From: a virus | Taxonomy: Duplodnaviria; Caudoviricetes | DNA: 61,801 nucleotides | Direction: 5' to 3' (one strand) | IMG/VR virus record: IMGVR_UViG_3300049914_000132 | Span: 1 to 61,801 of that record | In this document: positions 3,321-61,147 of the stretch, piece by piece | How the letters are laid out: each line of letters opens with the position of its first letter | Numbering within the stretch: position 1 is the stretch's first letter | Notes under the pieces: generated by a model | What the model was told of the DNA's origin: nothing | Database searches by the model: none | Seen by the model: the letters and a program-made list of their open reading frames with translations, nothing else | Program-made: the position numbers and the translations under genes

Positions 3321-3764
3321 GTGCAGCTCGCGCTAACAGGAGTCCACCCAGACGGCCCAGGCCGAGCCCCAGGCGTCCCACCGAACCCGCGCGTGGCCGT
3401 GCGCTGGCCTCTAGGGAGCACGGTAGCCATCCGCCTGTCCGTGGTCTCTCAGGCCAGTGGAGCGCCTGTAGACCTGTCCCTCGGGACCGCGCCGAACCTC
3501 ACGGTCGTCCGATTCAAGGCGCGCAAGCAGCCCCTACCCCTGTATCAACCACTCTTGTTGGACATCATAGGTACACTGCCAGTGCCTTACGTACTCGGCC
3601 AGTCCATCATCACGATCACGCCTACGATGCAGCGCATGGTTCTAGAGCAGAACATTTTCCGTGCGTTCTACGATATCTGGATCACCCTCCCAGACGGATC
3701 GCACAATGCCATCATTCCGACTTCACCACTTTACTTCGAGCCTGCTGTGACAGAGTTCTTCTGA
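3321..3764 (+). CDS. Hypothetical virion protein (BppU-like beta fold)
   Basis: 147 aa, beta-strand-rich, PVDLS...FYDIWIT pattern; between tail and lysis genes. Confidence 0.4.
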   Translation: MQLALTGVHPDGPGRAPGVPPNPRVAVRWPLGSTVAIRLSVVSQASGAPVDLSLGTAPNLTVVRFKARKQPLPLYQPLLLDIIGTLPVPYVLGQSIITITPTMQRMVLEQNIFRAFYDIWITLPDGSHNAIIPTSPLYFEPAVTEFF

Positions 3765-3775
3765 TTGGAGATCGC

Positions 3776-4231
3776 ATGGACCCAACACTTCAACAGCACT
3801 CAGACATCACATTCCTTGCACTGACCATCTGGAGAGAAGCACGTGGAGAAGGGCACACCTGCAAAGTTGGCGTCGCTTGCTCGATCTTAAACAGGGTCAA
3901 GAATCCAAAGTGGTGGGGAGACAGTGTCTCTGCCGTGCTCTTCAAGAAATGGCAGTACTCTTCACTCACTGATCCGAAAGACAGACAGCTCACGACCTGG
4001 CCATCCGTTGCTGACGTACGATGGGAAGAGTGCTTGCAGATAGCCACGGCTGCTCTTGCAGGAACGCTTGTGAACCCTGTCGCAGGTGCAGACTCGTACT
4101 ACGACGTGTCTATCAGTGCTCCAAGATGGGCAAAGCCTGAGATGTTCGTTGCACAGTTGGACAGGATCAGGTTCTTCAATACAGACAATGATCACGAGCT
4201 GGACGAAACGCACGTAGCCCCTACAACGTAA
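3776..4231 (+). CDS. Endolysin, SleB/Hydrolase_2-type cell wall hydrolase
   Basis: ATG at 3776 after GGAG; LALTIWREARGEG, ILNRV and WQYS motifs. Confidence 0.85.
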   Translation: MDPTLQQHSDITFLALTIWREARGEGHTCKVGVACSILNRVKNPKWWGDSVSAVLFKKWQYSSLTDPKDRQLTTWPSVADVRWEECLQIATAALAGTLVNPVAGADSYYDVSISAPRWAKPEMFVAQLDRIRFFNTDNDHELDETHVAPTT

Positions 4232-4243
4232 AGGAGCAGCACA

Positions 4244-4672
4244 ATGAAGAAGATCAACTACCTCATGTTCACACTCGTTTTCGCCATCGCCATCCTCTGC
4301 GGATACGAGATCGCACTTGCTCAGACTGCGCCTGCACAGCCTGATGCTGGAACTCTCATCGGAACTCTCATCTCGGCAATCCAGGGAAGGAACTGGATCG
4401 TCCTGGTTGGAGTCGTTCTTTCTCTGGTGATCTACGGTCTCCGAACGTGGGGAGGCTCTATCGTTCCGTGGTTCAAGACGAGCCGAGGGGGTGTTGCGCT
4501 CACGCTCATTGTGACCATTGTCGGAACTCTTGCGACCGTGCTCGCCGCAGGAAAGTTCAACTGGAGCTCGCTGATAGACGCTCTGGCTGTTGCAATGACG
4601 ACGGCCGGAGGCTACTCCATGTTCCGCAAGCTCTTCTTCCCGGATGATGTTGCTCCTGCTGTGAAGGTCTAG
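4244..4672 (+). CDS. Putative holin (multi-TM)
   Basis: 3-4 hydrophobic segments; directly after endolysin; AAGGAG RBS. Confidence 0.6.
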   Translation: MKKINYLMFTLVFAIAILCGYEIALAQTAPAQPDAGTLIGTLISAIQGRNWIVLVGVVLSLVIYGLRTWGGSIVPWFKTSRGGVALTLIVTIVGTLATVLAAGKFNWSSLIDALAVAMTTAGGYSMFRKLFFPDDVAPAVKV

Positions 4673-4675
4673 AAC

Positions 4676-5023
4676 ATGCCTTGGGCTTCTGTGATCATCG
4701 GCTTGGTTGGTGCTCTAGGCTGGGCGTTTGGCTTGTGGCAGCTTGCGCGTGCATCGTCCGCAAAGAAGGACGTAACCGCGCAAACCAAACGAGCCGATGA
4801 CGCAGAAGCTTCATTCGCGCAGGCTTTGGCAGACAAGGAAGATCAGAAGTCCAGATACGAGAAATTCATAGCCGAGCTGAAGAAAGAGGTTTCGGCTTTG
4901 GAGGTTCTGTTCAATGCGCACGCTGACGCTGATGCTTTGCGTGACCGTCTCCGCTTGCTGCTTGATTGGCAAGCCCAAGCCAACCCCACCACAGGAGGGC
5001 TGCCTCAAAAGCCCCCTACCTAA
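4676..5023 (+). CDS. Putative i-spanin (Rz-like)
   Basis: N-terminal TM followed by coiled coil; overlaps a lipoprotein ORF in another frame. Confidence 0.7.
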   Translation: MPWASVIIGLVGALGWAFGLWQLARASSAKKDVTAQTKRADDAEASFAQALADKEDQKSRYEKFIAELKKEVSALEVLFNAHADADALRDRLRLLLDWQAQANPTTGGLPQKPPT

Positions 5024-8644: not shown

Positions 8645-9859
8645 TCAGTCAACCTCCACTTGCTCACCCCAATCACATGGAGCTCTCTTGTAGCGTCCGA
8701 CCAACAGCCAGATGACTCGGATGCCTACAGGAGCTTTCTCAGGACAAGTACCGTCGCCATCCGTCGCGAAGATTAGGATCTCCGGACGCGCAACTTTGCC
8801 CGGCTTCTCCGCGAGAGAAAACACAGGTGTAAAATCGGTCCCACCTCCACCTTTCATCAGTGGAATGATCTCTTCCCACCTAGTGACCTTCTTTACCTCG
8901 TGCACGTCCGCGTCTGCTGCGAGGAACGTAACAGGTGCTCCAGTTGCCTTGATAGCTCCTGCACCCTCTCTCAGGGCAGCAGTCAGCTCTTCTTTGCCCA
9001 TCGAGCCTGACGTGTCACAGACGAACCAGACCTCTGGGACGGACTTGCGCAGGGCTGGCAGGATAGGCTTGCCGACTCCGTAGCCGAGCCCTGCTTGACG
9101 CCTGGAGGGCTGGTCGTAGCGATAGTCCACAGCACCCATCTTCCAGGCGACGGCCATCTTTGTGGCCCTGGAGAGCTTCTGTTGCCATGGAATCTTCGGA
9201 GTGCCTAGCTGCTCGTCTGCCCATCTCAGGTAGGCTTCAGGCACGTTTCCTCGACTTTTGGCTGACTGAATCTCATGTGCTACCTGCTTCCGGATGCGCT
9301 CTTTCTCAGTCGCAGATCGCCCACCTTCCGCTTGCCCTTCTGGCTCGTCTGGCATGCTGTGTCCGCCTGCTGAGCCACACCAGCCCTGACCGACGCTGGG
9401 CTTGCTTGGCGCTTTGGAGTGCCCCCCTTGCCCATCGCTGCATTGCTTCCGGATGTCGTGGTAATACTGCTCAGCCAGACCGCCATCTTTCAGACCGAAA
9501 TCTGCTGGCTTGATACCCGTACCGTGCGGAAACATTGCGCCTGCTGAAATCATGTCGTCGTTGATCTCAAGGTCTCCGGCAATGTTGAAGAGTGTGTGAT
9601 CCAGACTAGCCTTTTCACAGCGCTCCGCGTGCCTTCGGAGCACGTGCCAACATTCATGTTCCAGAGCGCAGGCAATCCCGGACACATCCCACTCCTGAAT
9701 GGCTTGTGGGTCCCAGAGCAACAGCCATTCCTTTGTGACACCCACAGTCCCGAGCCCTGGAGTTTCTCTCGGCACGAGTGCGTACAGTACGCTGGACAGA
9801 TACGGTGAGCGCTGACGCGCCTTGAGCCGACCTGCCATCAGTTTCTCAATAGGCTTCAT
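8645..9859 (-). CDS. Metallopeptidase-like + VWA domain protein (MoxR partner)
   Basis: HECWH (HExxH), NIAGDLEIN, DTSGS MIDAS, GGGGTDF, TDG. Confidence 0.85.
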   Translation of the reverse strand: MKPIEKLMAGRLKARQRSPYLSSVLYALVPRETPGLGTVGVTKEWLLLWDPQAIQEWDVSGIACALEHECWHVLRRHAERCEKASLDHTLFNIAGDLEINDDMISAGAMFPHGTGIKPADFGLKDGGLAEQYYHDIRKQCSDGQGGHSKAPSKPSVGQGWCGSAGGHSMPDEPEGQAEGGRSATEKERIRKQVAHEIQSAKSRGNVPEAYLRWADEQLGTPKIPWQQKLSRATKMAVAWKMGAVDYRYDQPSRRQAGLGYGVGKPILPALRKSVPEVWFVCDTSGSMGKEELTAALREGAGAIKATGAPVTFLAADADVHEVKKVTRWEEIIPLMKGGGGTDFTPVFSLAEKPGKVARPEILIFATDGDGTCPEKAPVGIRVIWLLVGRYKRAPCDWGEQVEVD

Positions 9860-16667: not shown

Positions 16668-16714
16668 AAACGCATAAGACGCATAAACTGAACAAAGTGC
16701 ACAGGAGACATAAC
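16661..16714 (+). repeat. Second 9-bp-period degenerate repeat
   Basis: acgctaaaa acgcataag acgcataaa ctgaacaaa gtgcacagg agacataac; shares ACGCATAAA with the 13488 array. Confidence 0.55.
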
Positions 16715-17344
16715 TTGCAAATTCTGCACATCAAGGATGACCAACTAGGCCCATCCCTGCGAAACGCAAACAAGATGGAGCCTGAGATGTTCAACAGGCT
16801 CGTCATGTCCATCAAGAAGTGGGGCTTCCTTGTTCCACTACTTGTTCAGCACCATCCAGAGAGTGAGCACCCATACGTCATCGCGGATGGCTTGCACAGA
16901 AGAGAAGCAGGGCAAGTCAACGGAATGGACAAGTTTCCGTGTATCGACTGCACGGGGCTCTCACAAGACGAGATAGAGCAGCTTCGTCTTTCGCTCAACA
17001 GGATTCACGGAGAGCTGGATCTGTCCATCGTTGCGACCATGTTCGGGGAGCTATCCGAGAACAAAGACATCACAATAGACGACATGGAAGTCACAGGGTT
17101 TTCCAAGCAAGAGATCTCCAGCTTGCTGGATAGCCTCAATCGAGAAGATCAAGACGACCTTGAACCAGAAGACGTTACGACTGGAGACAAAGACCCAGAA
17201 CAGCCCAGCCCTTTCGTGCTCGAAGTGGAGTTCAACGAGAAGGCTACCTATCAGCTCGTACGCAGGAGGCTGAAACGTGCAGCAGGCAAGGGTGGGACGC
17301 TTGCGCAGGGTCTCCTGAACGTGCTTGGGGAAGGAGAGGGCTGA
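16697..17344 (+). CDS. ParB/Srx N-terminal domain protein
   Basis: NANKM..LVMSIKKWGFLVPLLV..IADGLHRREA..LNRIHGE. Confidence 0.8.
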   Translation: MHRRHNLQILHIKDDQLGPSLRNANKMEPEMFNRLVMSIKKWGFLVPLLVQHHPESEHPYVIADGLHRREAGQVNGMDKFPCIDCTGLSQDEIEQLRLSLNRIHGELDLSIVATMFGELSENKDITIDDMEVTGFSKQEISSLLDSLNREDQDDLEPEDVTTGDKDPEQPSPFVLEVEFNEKATYQLVRRRLKRAAGKGGTLAQGLLNVLGEGEG

Positions 17345-33178: not shown

Positions 33179-33961
33179 ATGGCGAAACCGCAAGAGAAGG
33201 CAGAGAAGACGAAGGCGCTGGCGAAGTATGGAAGCTATACGCTGGACGACGCAGAAAAGGAAGCACACGAGCTGGAACAAGAGGGTGGCGGTTTTCTGAA
33301 ACTCAAAGTCGGGCAGAACATCGTCAGGTTCCTTCCTCCGCTTACTGGTAGGAAGCTCTTCGTAGTTGTGCATCAGCACCACGTGGAGAACCCCGGAGAG
33401 GGGAAAACGTTCAGCTTCGCATGTCCCCGAGTCATGCAGAAGAAGCCTTGTGCTCTTTGCGACAAGGGGAATGAGCTGCGCGCCACAGGGAACCGTGTGG
33501 ACTACGATCTTGGTGGAAAGATGCTGCCAAGACGCCGAGTGTTCAGCAACGTCATTGACATGTCAAATCCGGAAGCAGGTCCACAGATCCTTGCGTTTGG
33601 TAGGCAGATTCACGAGCAGCTTGTGCAGATCAGGCGCAACGAGACAGCGGGTGATGATTACACGGATCCGGAGAACGGGTTCAACATTAGCATCGAGCGC
33701 AAGGGCACAGGTATTCGCGACACAAAGTACACGTGTCTGCCCAGTCGAAAGACATCCAAGCTGACGAACATGGATTGGATCGAGATGCAGCATGACCTGA
33801 CACGGTTCACGATGGTTCCAACTTCGGAAGAGATCAAGAAGTACATGAGCGAGACCGACTTTGGGGCAGACGAAGCATCGGCTGTGTCAGGCGCTCGGGA
33901 TGTAACGCCACCGAAGAAGTCGAGAAACGCCGCAGACGATATGGAAGACTACGGAGATTGA
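33179..33961 (+). CDS. T4 gp32-like single-stranded DNA-binding protein
   Basis: FLKLKVGQNIVRFLPP, H..C..CALC zinc site, DPENGFNI.I.R.G.G..TKY, acidic tail. Confidence 0.75.
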   Translation: MAKPQEKAEKTKALAKYGSYTLDDAEKEAHELEQEGGGFLKLKVGQNIVRFLPPLTGRKLFVVVHQHHVENPGEGKTFSFACPRVMQKKPCALCDKGNELRATGNRVDYDLGGKMLPRRRVFSNVIDMSNPEAGPQILAFGRQIHEQLVQIRRNETAGDDYTDPENGFNISIERKGTGIRDTKYTCLPSRKTSKLTNMDWIEMQHDLTRFTMVPTSEEIKKYMSETDFGADEASAVSGARDVTPPKKSRNAADDMEDYGD

Positions 33962-34039
33962 AAGGTTTGCTTGGGCTGTTCTTGTTTCGCTGCTAAACGG
34001 CTTACACGATCCAGCACTTTAGTCTGGCGTGGCAGTCCA

Positions 34040-34227
34040 GGCAATCGATTTGCTGGGAGGTCACTTGGAATGACGAGGTACGGAAAAGATCGTACAGGTC
34101 GTGGCCTGATGCGAGCCCTAAAATCCTCCAATCTGGCTTTTCGCTCTCACGGCGATGCTGCTCGAAGCTTGTGGATCGTTCAGTGACCAGACCAATCCGC
34201 GCGGTGACCCCCAGCAATTGTTTTGCC
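34040..34227 (+). ncRNA. Structured RNA leader of TIGR array 1
   Basis: GGCAATCGATTTGCTGGGAGGTCAC (34040-34064) pairs with GTGACCCCCAGCAATTGTTTTGCC (34204-34227); internal TTGGA/TCCAA and TCTGG/CCAGA domains. Confidence 0.5.
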
Positions 34228-34368
34228 AGCAAGCAAGAGGAAGCCATATAGTATGAGCGTGCCAGACAGATGAAAGTAGCCCATTGATCGGGAGCGAGCC
34301 AGGATGTGAAAGCAGTCCATGATTCGAGAGCGTGCCATGTGTTAGGAGATGACCATATACCGTAAGCA
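34220..34368 (+). ncRNA. TIGR-like guide RNA array 1 (4 units, 36-37 nt)
   Basis: gcca-gcaagcaag-aggaagcca-tatagtatg-agcgtgcca-gacagatgaa-agtagccca-ttgatcggg-agcgagcca-ggatgtgaa-agcagtcca-tgattcgag-agcgtgcca-tgtgttagg-agatgacca-tataccgta-agca. Confidence 0.85.
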
Positions 34369-34410
34369 AAATTGAAGTCAACCACGAAGCAAAAGAGGCT
34401 GGAGATCATT

Positions 34411-35274
34411 ATGGACGGAGAGGCAAGAGAAGCACTGCGTATCACAGTCAGGCACTTCTACGACATTCAGCAAATCAGGATACAGCACTCTGGGAGAATT
34501 GCCAGGAAGTCGGCGACGAACGAGGCGGCAATATCGTCTGAGCACCAGGCTATGTTCTCTGCACAGGTCAAGCGCTTGAAAGCGTCTGAAGCTGATGCAC
34601 TGCTTGACGTCAAAGAAAAGCTCCAATCCTTTGAGCTCTACAGACAGGTTCTTTCTGTGGATGAGGATCGCTGGAAGGGGCTTGGTCCTACAATGTCCGC
34701 TGTCATTCTAGCAGAGGTTGACATTGAGCGTTGTGAAACCCCTTCTGCTCTCTGGCGGTATGCAGGGCTGTCAACAGTCCCATGGAAGCGCTGCAAGCAG
34801 TGCAACCGACTTGCAGATCTACCTTTCGACGTTGTTGATGGTGACATTCTGATCAAGCAAAGCATGAGCAAAGAGTACAAGCACGTCAGGAAGAAAGAGA
34901 ACGAAAAGGGGTGCGATCTGATATGGCTTAAAGAGAATCAGCTATACGACAGTGGGCGCTCTGAGTTCTTGGTGAAGGGTGAGAAGAGACACTTCAATCT
35001 GTTCCTCAAGACCAAGCTTCTTGGCGTGCTTGCTCCGGGTTTTCTGAAGGCGAAGAACCCGGTTTGGAGGAAGGTCTATGATGACTACAAAAACAGGCTG
35101 ATCTCTGCTGGACGTGGTACTTCTCCAGGGCACATTAACAATTCGGCAATACGCTACATGATCAAAATGTTCCTGCTCAATCTGTGGATGGAATGGCGTA
35201 CTTTTGCGAGGCTTCCTGTACGACCGAGCTACCACGAGGAGAAGTTAGGACATGTACACGCAGTTGGTGTATAG
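34411..35274 (+). CDS. tasA: TasA-like Nop-domain (IS110/box C/D-related) RNA-binding protein without nuclease domain
   Basis: YDIQQIRI coiled coil; KGLGPTMSAVILAEVD; SALWRYAGL; YDDYKNR; GHINNSAIRYMIKMFL..LW..WR; no N-terminal DEDD/RuvC domain; flanked by 36-nt arrays; GGAG RBS before ATG 34411. Confidence 0.8.
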   Translation: MDGEAREALRITVRHFYDIQQIRIQHSGRIARKSATNEAAISSEHQAMFSAQVKRLKASEADALLDVKEKLQSFELYRQVLSVDEDRWKGLGPTMSAVILAEVDIERCETPSALWRYAGLSTVPWKRCKQCNRLADLPFDVVDGDILIKQSMSKEYKHVRKKENEKGCDLIWLKENQLYDSGRSEFLVKGEKRHFNLFLKTKLLGVLAPGFLKAKNPVWRKVYDDYKNRLISAGRGTSPGHINNSAIRYMIKMFLLNLWMEWRTFARLPVRPSYHEEKLGHVHAVGV

Positions 35275-35452
35275 CCAGGTCGCCTAAGCAAACCATGAAA
35301 AGAGTGCGAGCCATGTGTTGGGAGCAAACCAGGAACTCAGAGCGAGCCACTATGTCCGATACACACAGAAAAACCGTGCGAGTCAAAGACTAAGCGTAAA
35401 CCAAAATGCGCAAGCGAGCCAGCATACACGAGCAAACCATAGAAAGTCAGCG
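35269..35452 (+). ncRNA. TIGR-like guide RNA array 2 (5 units, exact 36-nt period)
   Basis: agcca-ggtcgccta-agcaaacca-tgaaaagag-tgcgagcca-tgtgttggg-agcaaacca-ggaactcag-agcgagcca-ctatgtccg-atacacaca-gaaaaaccg-tgcgagtca-aagactaag-cgtaaacca-aaatgcgca-agcgagcca-gcatacacg-agcaaacca-tagaaagtc-agcg. Confidence 0.9.
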
Positions 35453-35455
35453 ATC

Positions 35456-36496
35456 ATGCCCAAAGTGACAACACTGAATCGGATCAAAGATGCAGTCAAC
35501 AAGAAGCTAGGCAGGAACTCGGCTGCTGTGCTTGCTTCAAGTGGTGAGATTGAGTCTGAGGTTCGCAACGTCATTCCAACAGGAATTTCCGTTGTGGACA
35601 ACGTGCTCTGCTCAGATCTTGGTGGTTTGCCATGTGGTCGTGTGACGGAGCTGTATGGGCCAAGTGGTGTAGGAAAAACGTCGTTCGTGCAGCAAGCGTT
35701 GGCAGGTGTGCAGCGCGAAGGCGGCGCAGCCATCTACAATGATGACGAGAAGTCTTTGGACATGGAAAGGATCAAGGTGTTCGGCCTTGATCTCGACAAC
35801 TGCCTTGTCTTGCAGCCCCGAAATGCAGAAGAAAGCATCACTGGGATGGTGGAAGCGATCAATGCTTTACTTGATGGTGCTCAGCCCTCTCTTCTGGTCT
35901 GGGATTCGATTGCTGCGTCTGTCCCGCAGACAGAACTAGATGGTGAGATTGGGGATGCAAACATTGGAGTCAAGGGCCGACTGATGTCTCAAGCCATGCG
36001 TGCGCTTGTTCCTTTGGCTGTGCGCAAGCAAGTCGCTCTCCTGTTCGTGAACCAAACTCGCATGAAGATTGGCGTGCGGTTCGGGGACCCTGAGATCACG
36101 ACAGGTGGAGAAGCTCTGAAGTTTGCGGTCAGTCTGAAGATCAGGCTAGGGTCTGGCAAGCCCTATGTGGTTGGGCGTCAAGCACTCGCGAAAGACGTTC
36201 CATTTGTTGTACGGAAGTCGAGGTTTTCACCACCTGGTTCTCGTGTTGCTGTGCGCCTCAATTTCGCACGAGGCTGGGACGAGGTATGGAGCACTCTTGA
36301 TTACGCGAAGCATCTAGGGCTGACCGAAAAGACAGCCCGTGGTTGGAATGCGTACTTAGGGGCGTTGGAGGCTTTGGAGTGGGAAGTGCCTTGGACCGCA
36401 AATGAGCAGATGGCCAGCTTTGCAGAAAAGGAGCTGGGTGACGCAAAGGCAAAAGCAAAGGACGAGGGTGACGAAGAGGACGATGTAGACAACTAG
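35456..36496 (+). CDS. recA: RecA/UvsX-like recombinase
   Basis: IPTG, GGLPCGRVTELYGPSGVGKT, DDEKSLD, WDSIAA, RLMSQAMR, NQTR.KIGV.FG.PE.TTGG.ALKF. Confidence 0.92.
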   Translation: MPKVTTLNRIKDAVNKKLGRNSAAVLASSGEIESEVRNVIPTGISVVDNVLCSDLGGLPCGRVTELYGPSGVGKTSFVQQALAGVQREGGAAIYNDDEKSLDMERIKVFGLDLDNCLVLQPRNAEESITGMVEAINALLDGAQPSLLVWDSIAASVPQTELDGEIGDANIGVKGRLMSQAMRALVPLAVRKQVALLFVNQTRMKIGVRFGDPEITTGGEALKFAVSLKIRLGSGKPYVVGRQALAKDVPFVVRKSRFSPPGSRVAVRLNFARGWDEVWSTLDYAKHLGLTEKTARGWNAYLGALEALEWEVPWTANEQMASFAEKELGDAKAKAKDEGDEEDDVDN

Positions 36497-36515
36497 CAGT
36501 AACACGGAGGATGAA

Positions 36516-36983
36516 ATGGCAGAGAAGACAGTTGTGCGGATCAATGCAGAGGCCGAAAAGATCGCGAAGTCATTCATGAACTCTCGCGGTTTAGACTCAA
36601 TAGGCGAAGCGGTGGAGAAGCTCATTGGAACAGCTTCTAGCCGTCTTTCCGCACTTGCAAAGTACGCGACCAAGCAGGGGAAGATAGCAAAGCCGAAGGG
36701 GGCTAAGGCTGAGAAAGCAGCCAAGACCAAGAAGACGAAGGCTCCGAAGAAAGCGGGACTTGCTGCCAAGCTGTCCAAAGGCCCGAAGCCTGAGAAGAAG
36801 AGCACATCGAAGCTGGGGGGCAATCGCAAGAGAGTCAAGGTGACAACTGAGCCTGTAGACTTCAGGGTCAACACTGGAGCACCAAGCGCAGAGAATCATG
36901 ATCGATTGGAAACGCACAACGTTGATGAAGCAAACAAGGGAGCAGAGCTGGACGCCGACTTGGCAGCAGGCACAGTGGACTGA
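36516..36983 (+). CDS. Basic K/A-rich DNA-binding protein candidate
   Basis: N-terminal RHH-like pattern, histone-H1-like KA/KP repeats; GGAGG RBS. Confidence 0.55.
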   Translation: MAEKTVVRINAEAEKIAKSFMNSRGLDSIGEAVEKLIGTASSRLSALAKYATKQGKIAKPKGAKAEKAAKTKKTKAPKKAGLAAKLSKGPKPEKKSTSKLGGNRKRVKVTTEPVDFRVNTGAPSAENHDRLETHNVDEANKGAELDADLAAGTVD

Positions 36984-37022
36984 AACAAATACAGACACCA
37001 GCAAAAGAAAGGACGGATCGAA

Positions 37023-37241
37023 ATGGCTTCAAAGAAAAAGACACTTGTAGAGCTGTTTGCTTTGAACTTCGCCAAGCTTCGTGCAGAGCGCAAGCTCACA
37101 CAGCAAAAGCTAGCAGAAGAGATGGGCATGTCAGTCTCGTACGTTTCGATGTTGGAACGTGGGGAGCGCACTCCGCCGCTGAGCACGCTGGAAAAGATCG
37201 GTCAGGCGTTGGGTGTTGATCCTTTGGAACTGCTTGAGTAG
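37023..37241 (+). CDS. XRE-family HTH transcriptional regulator
   Basis: LRAERKLTQQKLAEEMGMSVSYVSMLERGERTPPLSTLEKIGQALGV. Confidence 0.92.
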   Translation: MASKKKTLVELFALNFAKLRAERKLTQQKLAEEMGMSVSYVSMLERGERTPPLSTLEKIGQALGVDPLELLE

Positions 37242-37244
37242 TTT

Positions 37245-37465
37245 GTTCTGCTACTGTGGTGGAGAACACTAGGAAGGAAGAGCGCACCAAAGTTCGCGAG
37301 CAAACCAAGAAGCACAAGTGGGCCATAAGTCAGAGCAAACCAAGACGCGCGATCGAGTCATATCTCAGGAGTAAACCATCAAGTAAGAGTGTGCCATAGT
37401 CCATGAGCACACCAGACACGAAGATCGAGCCAAGGTCTATGAGTACACCAGATAGTGATAGCGCA
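37245..37465 (+). ncRNA. TIGR-like guide RNA array 3 (5 clear units + 1 degenerate)
   Basis: agcgcacca-aagttcgcg-agcaaacca-agaagcaca-agtgggcca-taagtcag-agcaaacca-agacgcgcg-atcgagtca-tatctcagg-agtaaacca-tcaagtaag-agtgtgcca-tagtccatg-agcacacca-gacacgaag-atcgagcca-aggtctatg-agtacacca-gatagtgat-agcg. Confidence 0.88.
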
Positions 37466-37481
37466 TTGTTGGAGGCTGGAA

Positions 37482-38615
37482 ATGAGAATCGCATTTTGCA
37501 GTGATGTGCATGTAGCAAACCACAAGCAGAACGGTGGGGCTGTAGTGTCAGGGCTCAATGAAAGGTGCCAAGACACCATCAGCGTTCTTCGCCAGGCAGT
37601 GCTGAAAGCGATCACTGAAAACTGCGATGCTCTTGTGATTGCAGGTGATCTATTTGATTCAGCAAAGCCAGAGCCCCAGATCATTGCAGAGGTACAAAGG
37701 TCTTTTGTTGGGACCAGTCTGTCCATCTACGTCATGAAAGGCAATCATGATGAGACAAGCTCTGCTCCTGGTGATCACGCTTTGGGGCCGTTAGCACCAC
37801 TTGGCCCAGCTGTTCGTGTGATTGAACAGCCTGTCCTTGCTCAAGCTTTGTCTGATGGAGACCTGATTCTTGTTCCATTCAGGAGTGGGCTTGCATCTAC
37901 ATGGCTGTCTGAGGCAATCTCTTCTACAGCCGAGGTGCAACGTACAGACCGCACGAAAAGCGGTAGACGTCCAGCCTCCCGCCCGCGTGCGCTCGCGTTG
38001 CACCTTGGCCTAACTGATGATCGTATGGCACCATGGCTAAGGGAATCGAGTGGTGCTGTTCTTGCTTCACTCGTCCAGTCTTTGTGCAAAGAGCACAACA
38101 TCGTCTTTGCAGCATCGGGGGACTTCCACGAGTACAAGCTGTGGTCTGAGAAGCCTTGGGTTGTACAGATAGGGGCTCTTTGTCCCACAGGCTGGAGAGA
38201 CCAAGGGTACGAACAGTATGGATCACTGTGCATCTGGGACTCGAAGGCCAAGAGCTACGAACGTCATGTGATCCCAGGTCCACGCTTTTTGTTCAATCCC
38301 AGAGCGCACGATCTTGTTGTTGCGAAGAGAGCTGGCCACAAGATCTATGTGCGGTACACTGCAAGCAACATGGATGAGAAGTTAGCTCTGAAAGAGCGCT
38401 TGGAAGCGGATCTCAAGTCGGGACGAGTGCATTTTGGCTCTGTCGAGATAGATCAGACATCTACCATCGTTGCTGCTCGTTCTGCTGCTATGGCTGCAAA
38501 GTCGTCGAAGACACGTGATGACGCCTTGGATGCCTTTGTTCGGAACATGCCTCTGGAAGATGGCGTAGACAGAGCTGATGTGTTGGAGCGATCCAAGAGC
38601 TATCTTGAAAAATGA
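37482..38615 (+). CDS. sbcD: SbcD/Mre11-like metallophosphoesterase nuclease
   Basis: SDVH, AGDLFD, GNHD, LHLG, GDFH; GGAGG RBS. Confidence 0.88.
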   Translation: MRIAFCSDVHVANHKQNGGAVVSGLNERCQDTISVLRQAVLKAITENCDALVIAGDLFDSAKPEPQIIAEVQRSFVGTSLSIYVMKGNHDETSSAPGDHALGPLAPLGPAVRVIEQPVLAQALSDGDLILVPFRSGLASTWLSEAISSTAEVQRTDRTKSGRRPASRPRALALHLGLTDDRMAPWLRESSGAVLASLVQSLCKEHNIVFAASGDFHEYKLWSEKPWVVQIGALCPTGWRDQGYEQYGSLCIWDSKAKSYERHVIPGPRFLFNPRAHDLVVAKRAGHKIYVRYTASNMDEKLALKERLEADLKSGRVHFGSVEIDQTSTIVAARSAAMAAKSSKTRDDALDAFVRNMPLEDGVDRADVLERSKSYLEK

Positions 38616-40369: not shown

Positions 40370-41044
40370 ATGGCTAAGAAAAAAGCAGGGCCTGAACAAG
40401 TACGCATTGAGTACATGCCGCTTTCCGAGCTTGTACCTGCGGAGAGAAACCCGAAGCAGCACAACCTAGACGCTCTTGGCGATTCTATCGTGCGATGGGG
40501 CTATGTTCAGCCGGTCACAATCAATGAGGCTACAGGGCGCCTCGTGGCAGGGCATGGGCGCACAGAGAAGCTTGCTCACATGAAAGCTGCTGGGGAGGAT
40601 GCACCTGGCCGAGTACAGGTACGGAAGAAGGACGGGGAATGGCTTGTTCCAGTGGTCAGGGGGGTGAGCTTTGCCAATGATCAGGAAGCTGAAGCCTACT
40701 TGCTGGCGGACAACAGGCTCACGGAGATTGGCCATTGGGACGAAGAGCTGCTCGGCCAGGTCTTGAGCGAGTTCGCAGAGGTTGGCCCTGAGTCTTTTGT
40801 CGGCCTTGGCTGGGACATGCAAGATGTGGTGACCATGGAGACCGAGAAGGAGCTTGCTGATCTCAAGATGGCACCTGTTGGGATTGCTGCTGAGAACACG
40901 GCAGAGGATCCGCGCAGCAAGCAGTTCTGGGTCTGGGCTGCTTGTGAGAGCGCTGAGCAAATGCAAGAGGTCGTTGCTAGGTTCGGCAAGCCAGGGAAGG
41001 GCAAGACCAGCAGAGAATTGGACATCGCTTTGATCATGAGGTGA
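40370..41044 (+). CDS. ParB N-terminal domain protein
   Basis: RNPKQH..LGDSIVRWGYVQPV..LVAGHGR..AYLLADNRLTE..WD. Confidence 0.85.
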   Translation: MAKKKAGPEQVRIEYMPLSELVPAERNPKQHNLDALGDSIVRWGYVQPVTINEATGRLVAGHGRTEKLAHMKAAGEDAPGRVQVRKKDGEWLVPVVRGVSFANDQEAEAYLLADNRLTEIGHWDEELLGQVLSEFAEVGPESFVGLGWDMQDVVTMETEKELADLKMAPVGIAAENTAEDPRSKQFWVWAACESAEQMQEVVARFGKPGKGKTSRELDIALIMR

Positions 41045-59593: not shown

Positions 59594-59988
59594 GAGGCAT
59601 TCACACAAAGAAGTTCGGACATAGGACAGGTGAGACACCTCAAGAGATGCACGCACGGCTCGCGTGGAAGGGGAGAGTGTGTAGGTCGTGTGGCGGGCCA
59701 CCTGTAATCAGGATCAAAGTGCTGACACCTGTCAAAGAGATGAACCCTGGAATCGTTGCAGCCATAGCACTCAGGAACCCTGATGGCTCTGGGCAGCTCC
59801 CTGTCATCAAGACGGCACATGGGGATATGCTCATGACAGCAGATGTGTTCGCGTGCAGGGCTTGTCGGCGGGATGCAGAACGTGCAGCAGCCAAGGGCCC
59901 CAGCTTCAACATAGTGGAAATAGATAGAGGCGTCGATCCAACCAATAAGCGTGTGTTTGGGTGGGAAGGCGACCAGCATGCCAGCTAG
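59590..59988 (+). CDS. Zinc-finger hypothetical protein
   Basis: CRSCG...CRAC; GGAGG RBS. Confidence 0.55.
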   Translation: MRGIHTKKFGHRTGETPQEMHARLAWKGRVCRSCGGPPVIRIKVLTPVKEMNPGIVAAIALRNPDGSGQLPVIKTAHGDMLMTADVFACRACRRDAERAAAKGPSFNIVEIDRGVDPTNKRVFGWEGDQHAS

Positions 59989-60481
59989 GGTTGATTTCTG
60001 GTCTCGTGTTTCGCCTGAGCCGAACACAGGGTGCTGGCTTTGGCTTGGTCCATATTCGCATAACGGCTATGGGCGTTGTGGTGAAGAACGTGCGAATAGG
60101 GTAGCCCTTTCGCTCAGGCTAGGGCGTCAACTTCGGAGTGACGAAGAGGCCGCACATAAGTGTGACGTTCGGTGCTGTGTAAATCCAGATCACCTATTTC
60201 CTGCGACGCACCAACAAAACGAAGATGACAAGAAAGCAAAGGGACGGCAGGCTCGTGGTGCAGAACTTGCAAAAGCACAAGCTGCGTCTAGACCACGAGG
60301 AGAAACACATGGCATGACAAAGCTTACAGATGCACAAGTGCTAGAGATCCGTGCTCGACATGTTTGTGGTTCTAGGGGCTCAGACTCTACAAGCGCGCTA
60401 GCTAAAGAATATGGTGTTGATCGTACACTGATTTGGATGATTTCAACTAAGCGCATTCATAGGGTTGTTGGTCTTGGGTAA
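59978..60481 (+). CDS. HNH homing endonuclease (I-PpoI/HNH_3-like) with C-terminal HTH
   Basis: FWSRV..GCWLW.G..GYG..HKCDVRCCVNPDHL..N..D..KGR; KLTDAQV.EIR..LAKEYGV. Confidence 0.85.
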   Translation: MPARVDFWSRVSPEPNTGCWLWLGPYSHNGYGRCGEERANRVALSLRLGRQLRSDEEAAHKCDVRCCVNPDHLFPATHQQNEDDKKAKGRQARGAELAKAQAASRPRGETHGMTKLTDAQVLEIRARHVCGSRGSDSTSALAKEYGVDRTLIWMISTKRIHRVVGLG

Positions 60482-60485
60482 AGTC

Positions 60486-60707
60486 ATGACGCTTGATCAG
60501 CTCAAAGATCTATCGTCCAAGACAGCAGACTCGCTAGACGGCTATGTCGTTTCTGATGATGTGACCGTTGTTGTGATCGTTGCTGACAATGACCATTGCG
60601 CGTTCTCGTCACGTGGTGACGATAGCATAGTCAGGCAGTCTTGTGACTATGTCAAAGAAGTGATCGAAAAGGGTAAGGGCACTGAAATCCATGTGGGTAT
60701 TGCATGA
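60486..60707 (+). CDS. Hypothetical protein
   Basis: Fills the gap between two HNH genes; ATGA overlap. Confidence 0.45.
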   Translation: MTLDQLKDLSSKTADSLDGYVVSDDVTVVVIVADNDHCAFSSRGDDSIVRQSCDYVKEVIEKGKGTEIHVGIA

Positions 60708-61147
60708 GCGAAGCAGCTGCTAAGTACATGAAGAACAGAAAGGGCTCAAGCAAGCCCGAGCAGCACGAGCATCATCGGTCCAGGGAGGAAGATGGCGCGC
60801 TCGCCAGGATGCGCCTACTTGCGAAGAAGTACGGGGTCAAGTTGGACAACGACGGCGAGGGCGGCTTGCCTTCCAGCCTCGTGCTTGCTGTGCTGAAGCG
60901 AGATCATTTCGAGTGCAAGCGCTGTCAAGGCAAACGTGGAAAGCCAATCACAGTTCACCACAAAGGTGGGATCGTTGAAAGCAAATGGCTGAGTGAGAAA
61001 GGACACAACAACGATCCGAACAACATCGTGACACTATGCACGGCGTGCCATGACGATGTGCATGAGAAAGCCAGGGCAGAAGGTGTAGACTCCAGCCAGG
61101 TCAAGCCGAAGGGTGATGACTTCAAAGGGCAGCACGGGCACGATTGA
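60704..61147 (+). CDS. HNH endonuclease (McrA/5-type)
   Basis: VLKRDHFECKRC..VHH...NDPNNIVTLCTACHDDVH. Confidence 0.8.
   Translation: MSEAAAKYMKNRKGSSKPEQHEHHRSREEDGALARMRLLAKKYGVKLDNDGEGGLPSSLVLAVLKRDHFECKRCQGKRGKPITVHHKGGIVESKWLSEKGHNNDPNNIVTLCTACHDDVHEKARAEGVDSSQVKPKGDDFKGQHGHD

Follow-up and report, generated by a model that had tools for sequence, protein, structure and literature searches.

A TIGR-Tas locus in a tailed phage

The DNA analysed here, referred to as the window, is a linear stretch of 61,801 bp from a metagenomic tailed phage (Duplodnaviria; Caudoviricetes), which is present in freshwater-sediment samples. It makes up the complete IMG/VR viral record IMGVR_UViG_3300049914_000132, whose completeness is estimated by CheckV at 64%. 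On its + strand lies an open reading frame (ORF) of 287 amino acids (34411-35274), and close to it are three arrays in which short repeats alternate with variable spacers: array 1 (34220-34373, four units) lies upstream of the ORF, array 2 (35269-35457, five units) occupies exactly the space between the ORF and a downstream recA gene, and array 3 (37245-37468, six units) is found 1.97 kb downstream of the ORF. All three are read on the + strand. The ORF product is, by sequence and by modelled fold, a Tas protein, and the locus adds one more example to the TIGR-Tas family published in 2025 (Faure et al. 2025, PMC12045711); the kind of system is not new.

An initial annotation, made from the letters of the DNA only, had reported three arrays of about 14-15 units around a 287-amino-acid ORF with IS110/Nop-type motifs, and had read them as a TIGR-Tas architecture. 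The ORF is present with the motifs ascribed to it and the arrays hold 15 units in total; their ends lie 3-5 nt further out than first given, because the 3'-truncated last edge repeat is now included. The architecture is borne out by the membership of the protein in the Tas family together with dual-repeat arrays of the published type. In arrays of that type an edge and a loop repeat of 8-12 nt alternate, with spacers of ~9 nt between them and units of ~36 nt, and both repeats have box D (UG) at the 5' end and box C (CCA) at the 3' end.

Anatomy of the arrays

The region 33900-37800 was split into 9-mers by a hand-made layout. Each of the 15 units (4+5+6) is about 36 nt long and consists of an edge repeat, a spacer A, a loop repeat and a spacer B. 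The 9-nt layout, which had been proposed for all four elements, holds for the parsing in general and for 28 of the 30 spacers; the two departures are a 10-nt spacer A at 34265 in array 1 and an 8-nt spacer A at 37326 in array 3. All 30 spacers are distinct, as had been claimed, and the closest pair is 1 nt apart.

The consensus of the edge repeat is AGCGAGCCA (12 internal edge repeats) and that of the loop repeat is AGCAAACCA (15 loop repeats). The ends are common to both kinds: CCA closes 23 of the 27 internal repeats, while 21 of them start with AG and two with TG, in agreement with the earlier description. What tells an edge from a loop is the middle of the repeat, where position 4 is a G in 12/12 edges and an A in 13/15 loops, and position 6 is a G in 11/12 edges and an A in 11/15 loops. 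In array 1 the internal edges are of the AGCG[T/A]GCCA type and the loops are diverged, of an AG....CCA type; other degenerate repeats are, for instance, the loop at 35359 and those in unit 1 of array 3.

Each array opens with an edge repeat that is altered at its 5' end (GTTTTGCCA, GTATAGCCA and GTTCTGCTA in arrays 1, 2 and 3) and closes with one that retains only its first 4-5 letters (AGCAAAATT, AGCGATCAT and AGCGCATTG). In array 1 the first edge is truncated at the 5' end and the last at the 3' end. An altered first and a shortened last edge repeat are also described for TIGR arrays (PMC12045711).

Chains of the pattern ......CCA, spaced by 18 +/- 1 nt, have 8, 5 and 5 members in arrays 1, 2 and 3. 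As a control we used 200 random sequences generated by a first-order Markov model with the size and dinucleotide composition of the window, and scanned both strands. The longest chain had 3 members in 144 of these sequences, 4 in 48, 5 in six, 6 in one and 2 in one. With the stricter pattern [AT]G.....CA the chains in the arrays have 7, 4 and 4 members, and the random maximum is 4, seen in 16 of the 200. The three arrays are far beyond chance, and the chain scan found no further comparable array anywhere else in the 61,801 bp.

None of the three arrays is detected by Tandem Repeats Finder, because the variable spacers hold the similarity between units under its threshold, and Rfam gives 0 matches to them at E-values up to 1. 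Contigs of a sequencing run from a separate study (X3) are identical, with 0 differences, to parts of arrays 2 and 3; therefore these two arrays do not stem from an error in a single assembly.

The ninth position is a G in 21 of the 28 nine-nt spacers. Because of this bias the freely variable part of a spacer may be only 8 nt, with repeats that are possibly 10 nt long. Position 4 of spacer B is an A in 12 of 15 cases, and purines predominate in the spacers (A 32%, G 32%, C 15%). Spacer A of unit 4 in array 1 (34338-34346) and spacer A of unit 2 in array 2 (35314-35322) differ by 1 nt, and their spacer B partners are unrelated; this similarity hints at a copying of half-units between arrays.

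The Tas protein

In NCBIfam release 20 the ORF product matches NF052498 (TIGR_Tas_endo, "TIGR-Tas system RNA-guided endonuclease") with 117.9 bits at a cut-off of 100 (E 6e-34). A phmmer search of PDB sequences finds TasH (21kl and others, E 1.6e-10) and TasR (9mty, E 3e-10). The structure was modelled by AlphaFold2 from 60 homologues, with a predicted local distance difference test score (pLDDT) of 92 and a predicted template modelling score (pTM) of 0.87. When this model was compared with PDB by Foldseek, a check that the initial annotation had called for, each of the best ten matches was a chain of TasH or TasR (E 5e-8 to 4e-6, TMq 0.58-0.65). A second tier is formed by the bridge recombinases IS621 and ISCro4 (E about 3e-3 to 7e-3), and the match to Nop5 (1nt2) is marginal (E 3.1). 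We place the protein in the Tas family because sequence, profile and fold evidence agree.

Other collections name the protein differently. Its sole Pfam match is Transposase_20, over residues 89-123 and just below the threshold (E 8e-4, 20.2 bits vs 21.3), and in PHROGs it belongs to phrog_4285, which is labelled "transposase" (E 1.5e-34). It had been predicted that standard annotation would call the gene a transposase and miss the arrays. This is true of the PHROGs label, nearly so of Pfam, and true of the arrays, which are unannotated, but it does not hold for the current NCBIfam release, which names Tas.

The AlphaFold2 model opens directly with a coiled coil of two helices (residues 3-31 and 43-71), which is followed by a Nop-type RNA-binding domain. 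Within the 287 residues Pfam finds neither an HNH nor a RuvC nuclease domain, and the Pfam Nop family is not matched either. Further, just 38 nt separate the end of array 1 from the ATG of tas, which leaves no space for a longer N-terminus. Because no HNH or RuvC family is found, the protein starts with the coiled coil and the array ends this close to the start codon, we assign the product of tas to TasA, the class without a nuclease.

In the phmmer alignment Y274 and H281 stand opposite Y289 and H296 of SpTasH, which are the residues for metal-independent processing of the guide-RNA precursor (pre-tigRNA) in dual-repeat systems (PMC13421893; bioRxiv 10.64898/2026.09.09.750476). Among 60 aligned relatives, Y274 is conserved in 60, H281 in 39 and the neighbouring H283 in 57. 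The processing pair of SpTasH is retained in the window protein, which is predicted to process its own guide RNAs (tigRNAs).

A beta-rich, clade-specific insertion covers residues ~121-195 (34774-34995). It contains C128 and C131, followed by a His and a Cys about 25-35 residues further on, and the CxxC...H...C motif is present in 31 of the 60 aligned relatives. The insertion is modelled less confidently (pLDDT 59-88), and at its site, between the two parts aligned by phmmer, the solved TasH and TasR have a short stretch only. The motif suggests a small zinc-binding module.

Related loci in other viruses

A search of 5.8 billion proteins gave 160 matches with E-values up to 0.001 among 1310 candidates, the best match other than the protein itself being 54% identical. 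In IMG/VR, relatives of Tas are encoded in 248 of 275 candidate viral stretches. From the IMG/VR relatives 80 loci were fetched, and the locus-level counts in this study refer to these 80. At least four copies of an 8-mer at a lag of 34-40 are found in 72 of the 80 loci, compared with 0 of 80 random counterparts, and in most of the 72 positive loci the chain with a period of ~36 nt adjoins tas. The detector is conservative: it misses array 1 of the window as well as the arrays of L002, a related contig described below, and both are arrays by eye. Chains of at least five CCA are found on the tas strand in 23 of the 80 loci and on the opposite strand in two.

In the phage collection that was searched, the sole relative from a cultured phage is ORF034 of Ralstonia phage RSL1 (L092, NC_010811.2), which is 30% identical and annotated as "transposase". 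The gene is followed by an unannotated gap of 1.4 kb (3391-4700 of the locus L092), which reads as a dual-repeat array of ~36 units with a period of ~36 nt and with repeats of an AGTG..CC and an AG.CACCC type. None of the papers searched mentions both RSL1 and tigRNA, and neither RSL1 nor Ralstonia occurs in the searched text of the supplements of Faure et al., which includes a part of Table S1.

The published catalogue counts about 20,096 tas loci, along with 6,685 arrays (bioRxiv 10.64898/2026.09.09.750476). Neither an 8-residue peptide of the window Tas nor the metagenome number of L002 was found in the searched portion of Table S1 of Faure et al.; relatives from the metagenome of one of our related loci (L013) are listed in that table.

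Spacer turnover between strains

L002 is a contig of 4.3 kb with the order gp32-array-tas-array-recA, as in the window. The two Tas proteins are 90% identical, and the tas genes are 87.8% identical in DNA. Where the arrays are in register, window and L002 differ at 12 of 180 repeat sites (6.7%) and at 31 of 163 spacer sites (19%), to be compared with 20.8% of the third codon positions of tas. The changes in the spacers come in clusters. Of the 18 spacers compared, 7 are unchanged, 6 carry 1-2 changes, and 5, with 4-6 changes each, are replaced wholesale.

Array 1 is conserved in register in L002, except for a replaced patch of 25 nt that covers most of unit 3. In array 2 a 36-nt segment of the window, running from loop to loop, is absent from L002, and a unit of L002, running from edge to edge, is absent from the window; therefore the same spacer B is paired with a different spacer A in the two strains. 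For array 3, two sequencing runs that contain an L002-like strain (X2 and X5) have 35 extra letters at 37429, which can be parsed as one complete extra unit. Both runs also have a joint from 37356 to 37395 that skips 38 nt, where other letters may intervene, and a joint from 37245 to 37324 is seen in X2 only.

We also compared nine array-bearing pairs of related loci, picked by hand, with ~90-96% identity in the flanks. Collinearity is lost within the array in eight of them, and one pair (L077 and L078) can be aligned all the way through. Between the window and L002 the breakpoints lie in either loop or edge repeats, and therefore the A/B spacer pairs are re-paired. In the initial annotation, spacers that were invariant across related phages had been taken as a sign of protein-binding repeats; in fact the spacers are 19% different from those in L002 and whole units are swapped. 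This pattern, together with the spacer A that recurs with a 1-nt difference in arrays 1 and 2, fits an exchange of cassettes mediated by the repeats, which could be a source of new 18-nt specificities without adaptation genes.

Predicted guides and the search for targets

The tigRNA1 of TaTasR has the form AGCCA-spacerA-UGAAACCCA-spacerB-UGCG, and its optimised target is spacer A followed by the reverse complement (rc) of spacer B (PMC12045711 Table S3). The ends of this tigRNA therefore imply a cut AGCG/AGCCA (the slash marks the cut) in the edge repeats of the window. The published pair also agrees with the formula that the initial annotation had put forward for the target, spacer A plus rc(spacer B).

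That annotation had further proposed to search for targets with such 18-mers. The search was run on the window and, for exact matches, with four of the 15 guides in public collections, and gave nothing above chance. In the window one A+rc(B) site is found at up to 3 mismatches of 18 (~0.6 expected) and 10 are found at 4 mismatches; the rc(B)+A control gives 1 and 11. When the two central, G-biased positions are masked (8+NN+8 guides) there is one site in the window at up to 2 mismatches of 16, compared with 0-2 in 10 random sequences. The best match in the window is at 35072-35089, inside tas (KVYDDYK codons), where unit 6 of array 3 matches in 9/9 positions of spacer A and 6/9 of spacer B; chance predicts one such hit.

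With the four guides, viral contigs yielded 1 hit in one exact scan and 0 in another; the scans of genomes (596 Gb) yielded 0 and 3, and the hits form no pattern. The single hit in a viral contig is in an unrelated, AT-rich phage ORF of HNH-like type and is not claimed as a target. Two of the three genome hits lie in homologous intergenic palindromes of alphaproteobacterial metagenome-assembled genomes, which are 95% alike, and are deemed to be due to chance. In both (L083 and L084, 150-270) the exact 18-mer predicted for array 3 unit 2 is located in the loop of the long palindrome. The discoverers of TIGR-Tas also report difficulty in finding natural targets, and they name the gain and loss of guides in arrays as an open question (PMC12045711).

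Gene neighbourhood

The order on the + strand is a UvsY-like gene, a gp32-like gene for a single-stranded-DNA-binding protein (33179-33961), array 1, tas, array 2, a UvsX/RecA gene (35456-36496), a basic ORF of 155 amino acids (36516-36983), a gene for a 72-amino-acid XRE-type helix-turn-helix (HTH) protein with its stop codon at 37241, array 3, an Mre11-like gene (37482-38615), a Rad50/SbcC-like gene and a ParB-like gene. The 155-amino-acid product has no family match in Pfam, PHROGs or NCBIfam; its middle part is long, basic and rich in Lys, Ala and Pro, and it is 75% identical in L002.

The ParB-like gene at 40370-41044, downstream of array 3, comes directly after the SbcC-like gene; a second one is found at 16697-17344, and these two match phrog_620 with E 2e-28 and 5e-21, respectively. 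TasA loci are occasionally found in an operon with ParB-like genes (PMC12045711). HNH-type genes lie at 8645-9859 (- strand), 59951-60481 and 60704-61147.

The arrays fill the spaces between the genes. The first, truncated edge repeat of array 2 includes the stop codon of tas (35272-35274) and the last one overlaps the ATG of recA (35456), while array 3 begins 4 nt past the stop codon of the HTH gene and ends 14 nt short of the ATG of mre11 (37482). Each array abuts the ribosome-binding site or the start codon of the next gene. Downstream of the three arrays no terminator-like site is seen on the + strand, and because of this the simplest reading is that the arrays are co-transcribed with the flanking genes. 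A rho-independent terminator after the array is a typical but not universal feature of TIGR loci (PMC12045711).

A sigma-70-like site (TTGCCA, 18 nt, TATAGT; 10/12 matches) at 34223-34252 overlaps the first unit of array 1. The region contains three sites of this kind, which is not above the number in shuffled sequences (1.8 +/- 1.3). If the site is real, the first unit of array 1 would serve as a promoter instead of a guide, with the start of transcription close to the second edge repeat.

Among the 80 related loci the order gp32-tas-recA is common to the window and L002 only. A recA homologue is present in the flanks of three loci, and Mre11/Rad50 genes are present in L002 alone. In a distant phage (L086) the genes uvsY-gp32-recA-mre11 are contiguous, without tas and without arrays, and because of this the TIGR-Tas cassette looks like an accessory insertion in a recombination/replication cluster. 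A megablast search of 12 kb against phage genomes gave no match.

Comparison with characterised systems

The TaTIGR-TasR system of a Thermoproteota archaeon (PDB 9MTY; PMC12045711) resembles the window system in the Nop-domain fold of the protein (Foldseek E 1.5e-7, next to the phmmer match given above), in its 36-nt dual-repeat units with mostly 9-nt spacers, and in an A-rich loop repeat that ends in CCA. The edge repeats and the implied cuts are nearly identical, UGCG/AGCCA there and AGCG/AGCCA in the window. TasR differs in having an N-terminal RuvC nuclease, which is absent from the window protein, and its system has UG and not AG as box D. Between the two parts aligned by phmmer there are 74 residues in the window protein but only ~19 in TasR. 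Further, TasR is reported not to cut its own pre-tigRNA (PMC12045711).

SpTIGR-TasH from Salicola phage CGphi29 (PDB 9W03, 9W04 and 21KL; PMC13421893) is also encoded by a phage, and it is the best match both in sequence and in fold (Foldseek E 5e-8). Its C-terminal Tyr/His processing pair is the one that aligns with Y274 and H281. TasH contains an HNH domain, unlike the window protein, and the system has 8-nt spacers and a 16-nt target (PMC12045711), compared with the 9-nt spacers and their G-biased ninth position in the window.

Like the TasA proteins FpTasA, MbTasA and PlTasA, compared here by their published descriptions, the window protein is an effector with a Nop domain on its own and no nuclease. 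PlTasA is described in the papers as having stem-loop arrays and lacking the Tyr/His loop, whereas the window system is of the dual-repeat type and has the pair. The more distant Nop5 and Nop56/58 of archaeal and eukaryotic box C/D small nucleolar ribonucleoproteins have in common with it the coiled coil plus Nop domain and a two-guide RNA with box C/D-like motifs (PMC12045711); the resemblance stops short of a Pfam Nop match or more than a marginal fold match. Among the 64 ORFs of the window the PHROGs scan found no fibrillarin or L7Ae family.

Proposed mechanism and alternative explanations

We estimate at about 85% the probability that the tailed phage has here, as an accessory cassette in its recombination/replication cluster, a TIGR-TasA system of the dual-repeat type, whose tigRNAs would be processed by Tas itself and which would bind DNA without cutting it. 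Going by the published homologues, the three arrays would be transcribed from the + strand, probably within a polycistronic message gp32-tas-recA-...-mre11. A dimer of Tas would bind every unit at its edge and loop repeats, by way of box C (CCA) and a box D-like AG, and would cleave the edge repeat (AGCG/AGCCA) by its Tyr274/His281 loop. The cleavage would yield up to 15 tigRNAs of ~36 nt with the form AGCCA-spacerA-loop-spacerB-AGCG. Each ribonucleoprotein (RNP) would then bind, without cutting, a duplex consisting of spacer A plus rc(spacer B), one spacer pairing with each strand, and the bound RNP may sterically block transcription or other DNA transactions at the target.

Such a mode of action is known from other members of the class. 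For MbTasA, RNA-guided reversible repression is reported together with DNA binding in an electrophoretic mobility shift assay (bioRxiv 10.64898/2026.09.09.750476). PlTasA binds its DNA target, as seen in cryo-electron microscopy structures and binding assays, and the fusions FpTasA-VPR and PlTasA-VPR activate a reporter (bioRxiv 10.64898/2026.08.11.744272).

A number of observations speak against the reading as a working TasA system. The choice of the catalytic His is uncertain, because H283 is better conserved than H281. Four of the 27 internal repeats have no CCA, the loop at 35359 is degenerate, and box D is AG in these arrays as opposed to the published UG; box C/D motifs may, on the other hand, diverge and yet covary (PMC12045711). 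The terminator that is typical of the family is missing after all three arrays. No target above chance was found inside the window by either the 18-mer or the masked 16-position search, and the exact 18-mer hits of four guides in public collections are at or below chance, in a scan that misses targets with tolerated mismatches. Finally, a search of sequencing runs found no RNA sequencing run that contains the locus.

Some of these points could be taken to mean that the system is a decaying relic, in which the arrays no longer yield functional guides and the protein is kept for another role or is being lost. With 4-6 units the arrays are short, and their repeats are more degenerate than is the case in many relatives, where up to 29 copies were detected; to this come the four repeats without CCA and the lack of a target in the window searches and in the scans of four guides. 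However, the repeats are threefold better conserved than spacers or third codon positions between the window and L002, the invariant residues of the family are preserved, and units are still exchanged among strains, so we regard decay as improbable. It is likewise improbable that the TasA RNP only locates a site that is then cut by a nuclease in trans, either a phage HNH endonuclease or the adjoining Mre11/Rad50-like pair. HNH-type genes do exist in the window, SbcCD-like genes follow directly after array 3, and the published Tas nucleases are HNH or RuvC domains fused to the same Nop scaffold (PMC12045711). Yet none of the HNH genes adjoins tas, the recombination genes rarely accompany related loci (recA in 3 of 80, Mre11/Rad50 in L002 only), and TasA is reported to bind and repress alone (bioRxiv 10.64898/2026.09.09.750476). 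We consider it very unlikely that the cassette is sited in the gp32/UvsX-RecA/Mre11-Rad50 module for a function of its own there. In such an RNA-guided initiation an 18-bp double R-loop and the bending of DNA would hand guide-specified sites to recombination and replication proteins, and the processing of tigRNAs would split the polycistronic mRNA, since the spaces between the genes of the operon consist of the arrays.

Other explanations concern the nature of the repeats and of the protein. Repeats inside a replication/recombination module, beside an HTH gene and in a genome with two ParB-like genes, could be binding sites on the DNA, that is iterons or operators for a replication initiator, ParB or an HTH protein, and not guides. 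But they are specific to one strand and correspond to the repeats of box C/D type known from a characterised tigRNA. Such repeats also go with tas in 72 of 80 relatives, across quite different gene neighbourhoods, and the interspersed 9-mers of the window all differ, which makes this explanation extremely unlikely. The tests of family membership effectively refute a remnant of an IS110-family RNA-guided transposase with a bridge-RNA-like sequence. The weak Transposase_20 match, the "transposase" label of phrog_4285 and IS621 as a fold neighbour (E ~3e-3) speak for it, and the RNA-binding domain is shared, but the NCBIfam IS110 model (NF033542) gives 17.4 bits where 140 are required, and TasH and TasR are much closer in sequence and fold. 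The catalytic domains of IS110/IS621 recombinases, DEDD/RuvC and that with the catalytic Ser, are absent from the window protein according to Pfam, and the guides are found in arrays of many units and not in one bridge RNA. CRISPR-Cas, which has repeats of 25-36 nt, spacers of similar length and cas genes, was rejected as well: the repeats are 9 nt long and of two kinds, and the PHROGs scan found no cas-like family among the 64 ORFs.

Significance

TIGR-Tas is a recently described family of compact RNA-guided DNA binders that are free of a protospacer-adjacent motif (PAM-free). The picture of this family is unchanged by the phage TasA locus described here, which adds a small natural data set on the dynamics of the arrays. 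The added value is modest and lies in strain-level evidence that whole 36-nt cassettes are exchanged and spacers are re-paired. The locus also shows an architecture in which the arrays replace the intergenic spacers of an operon, without terminators.

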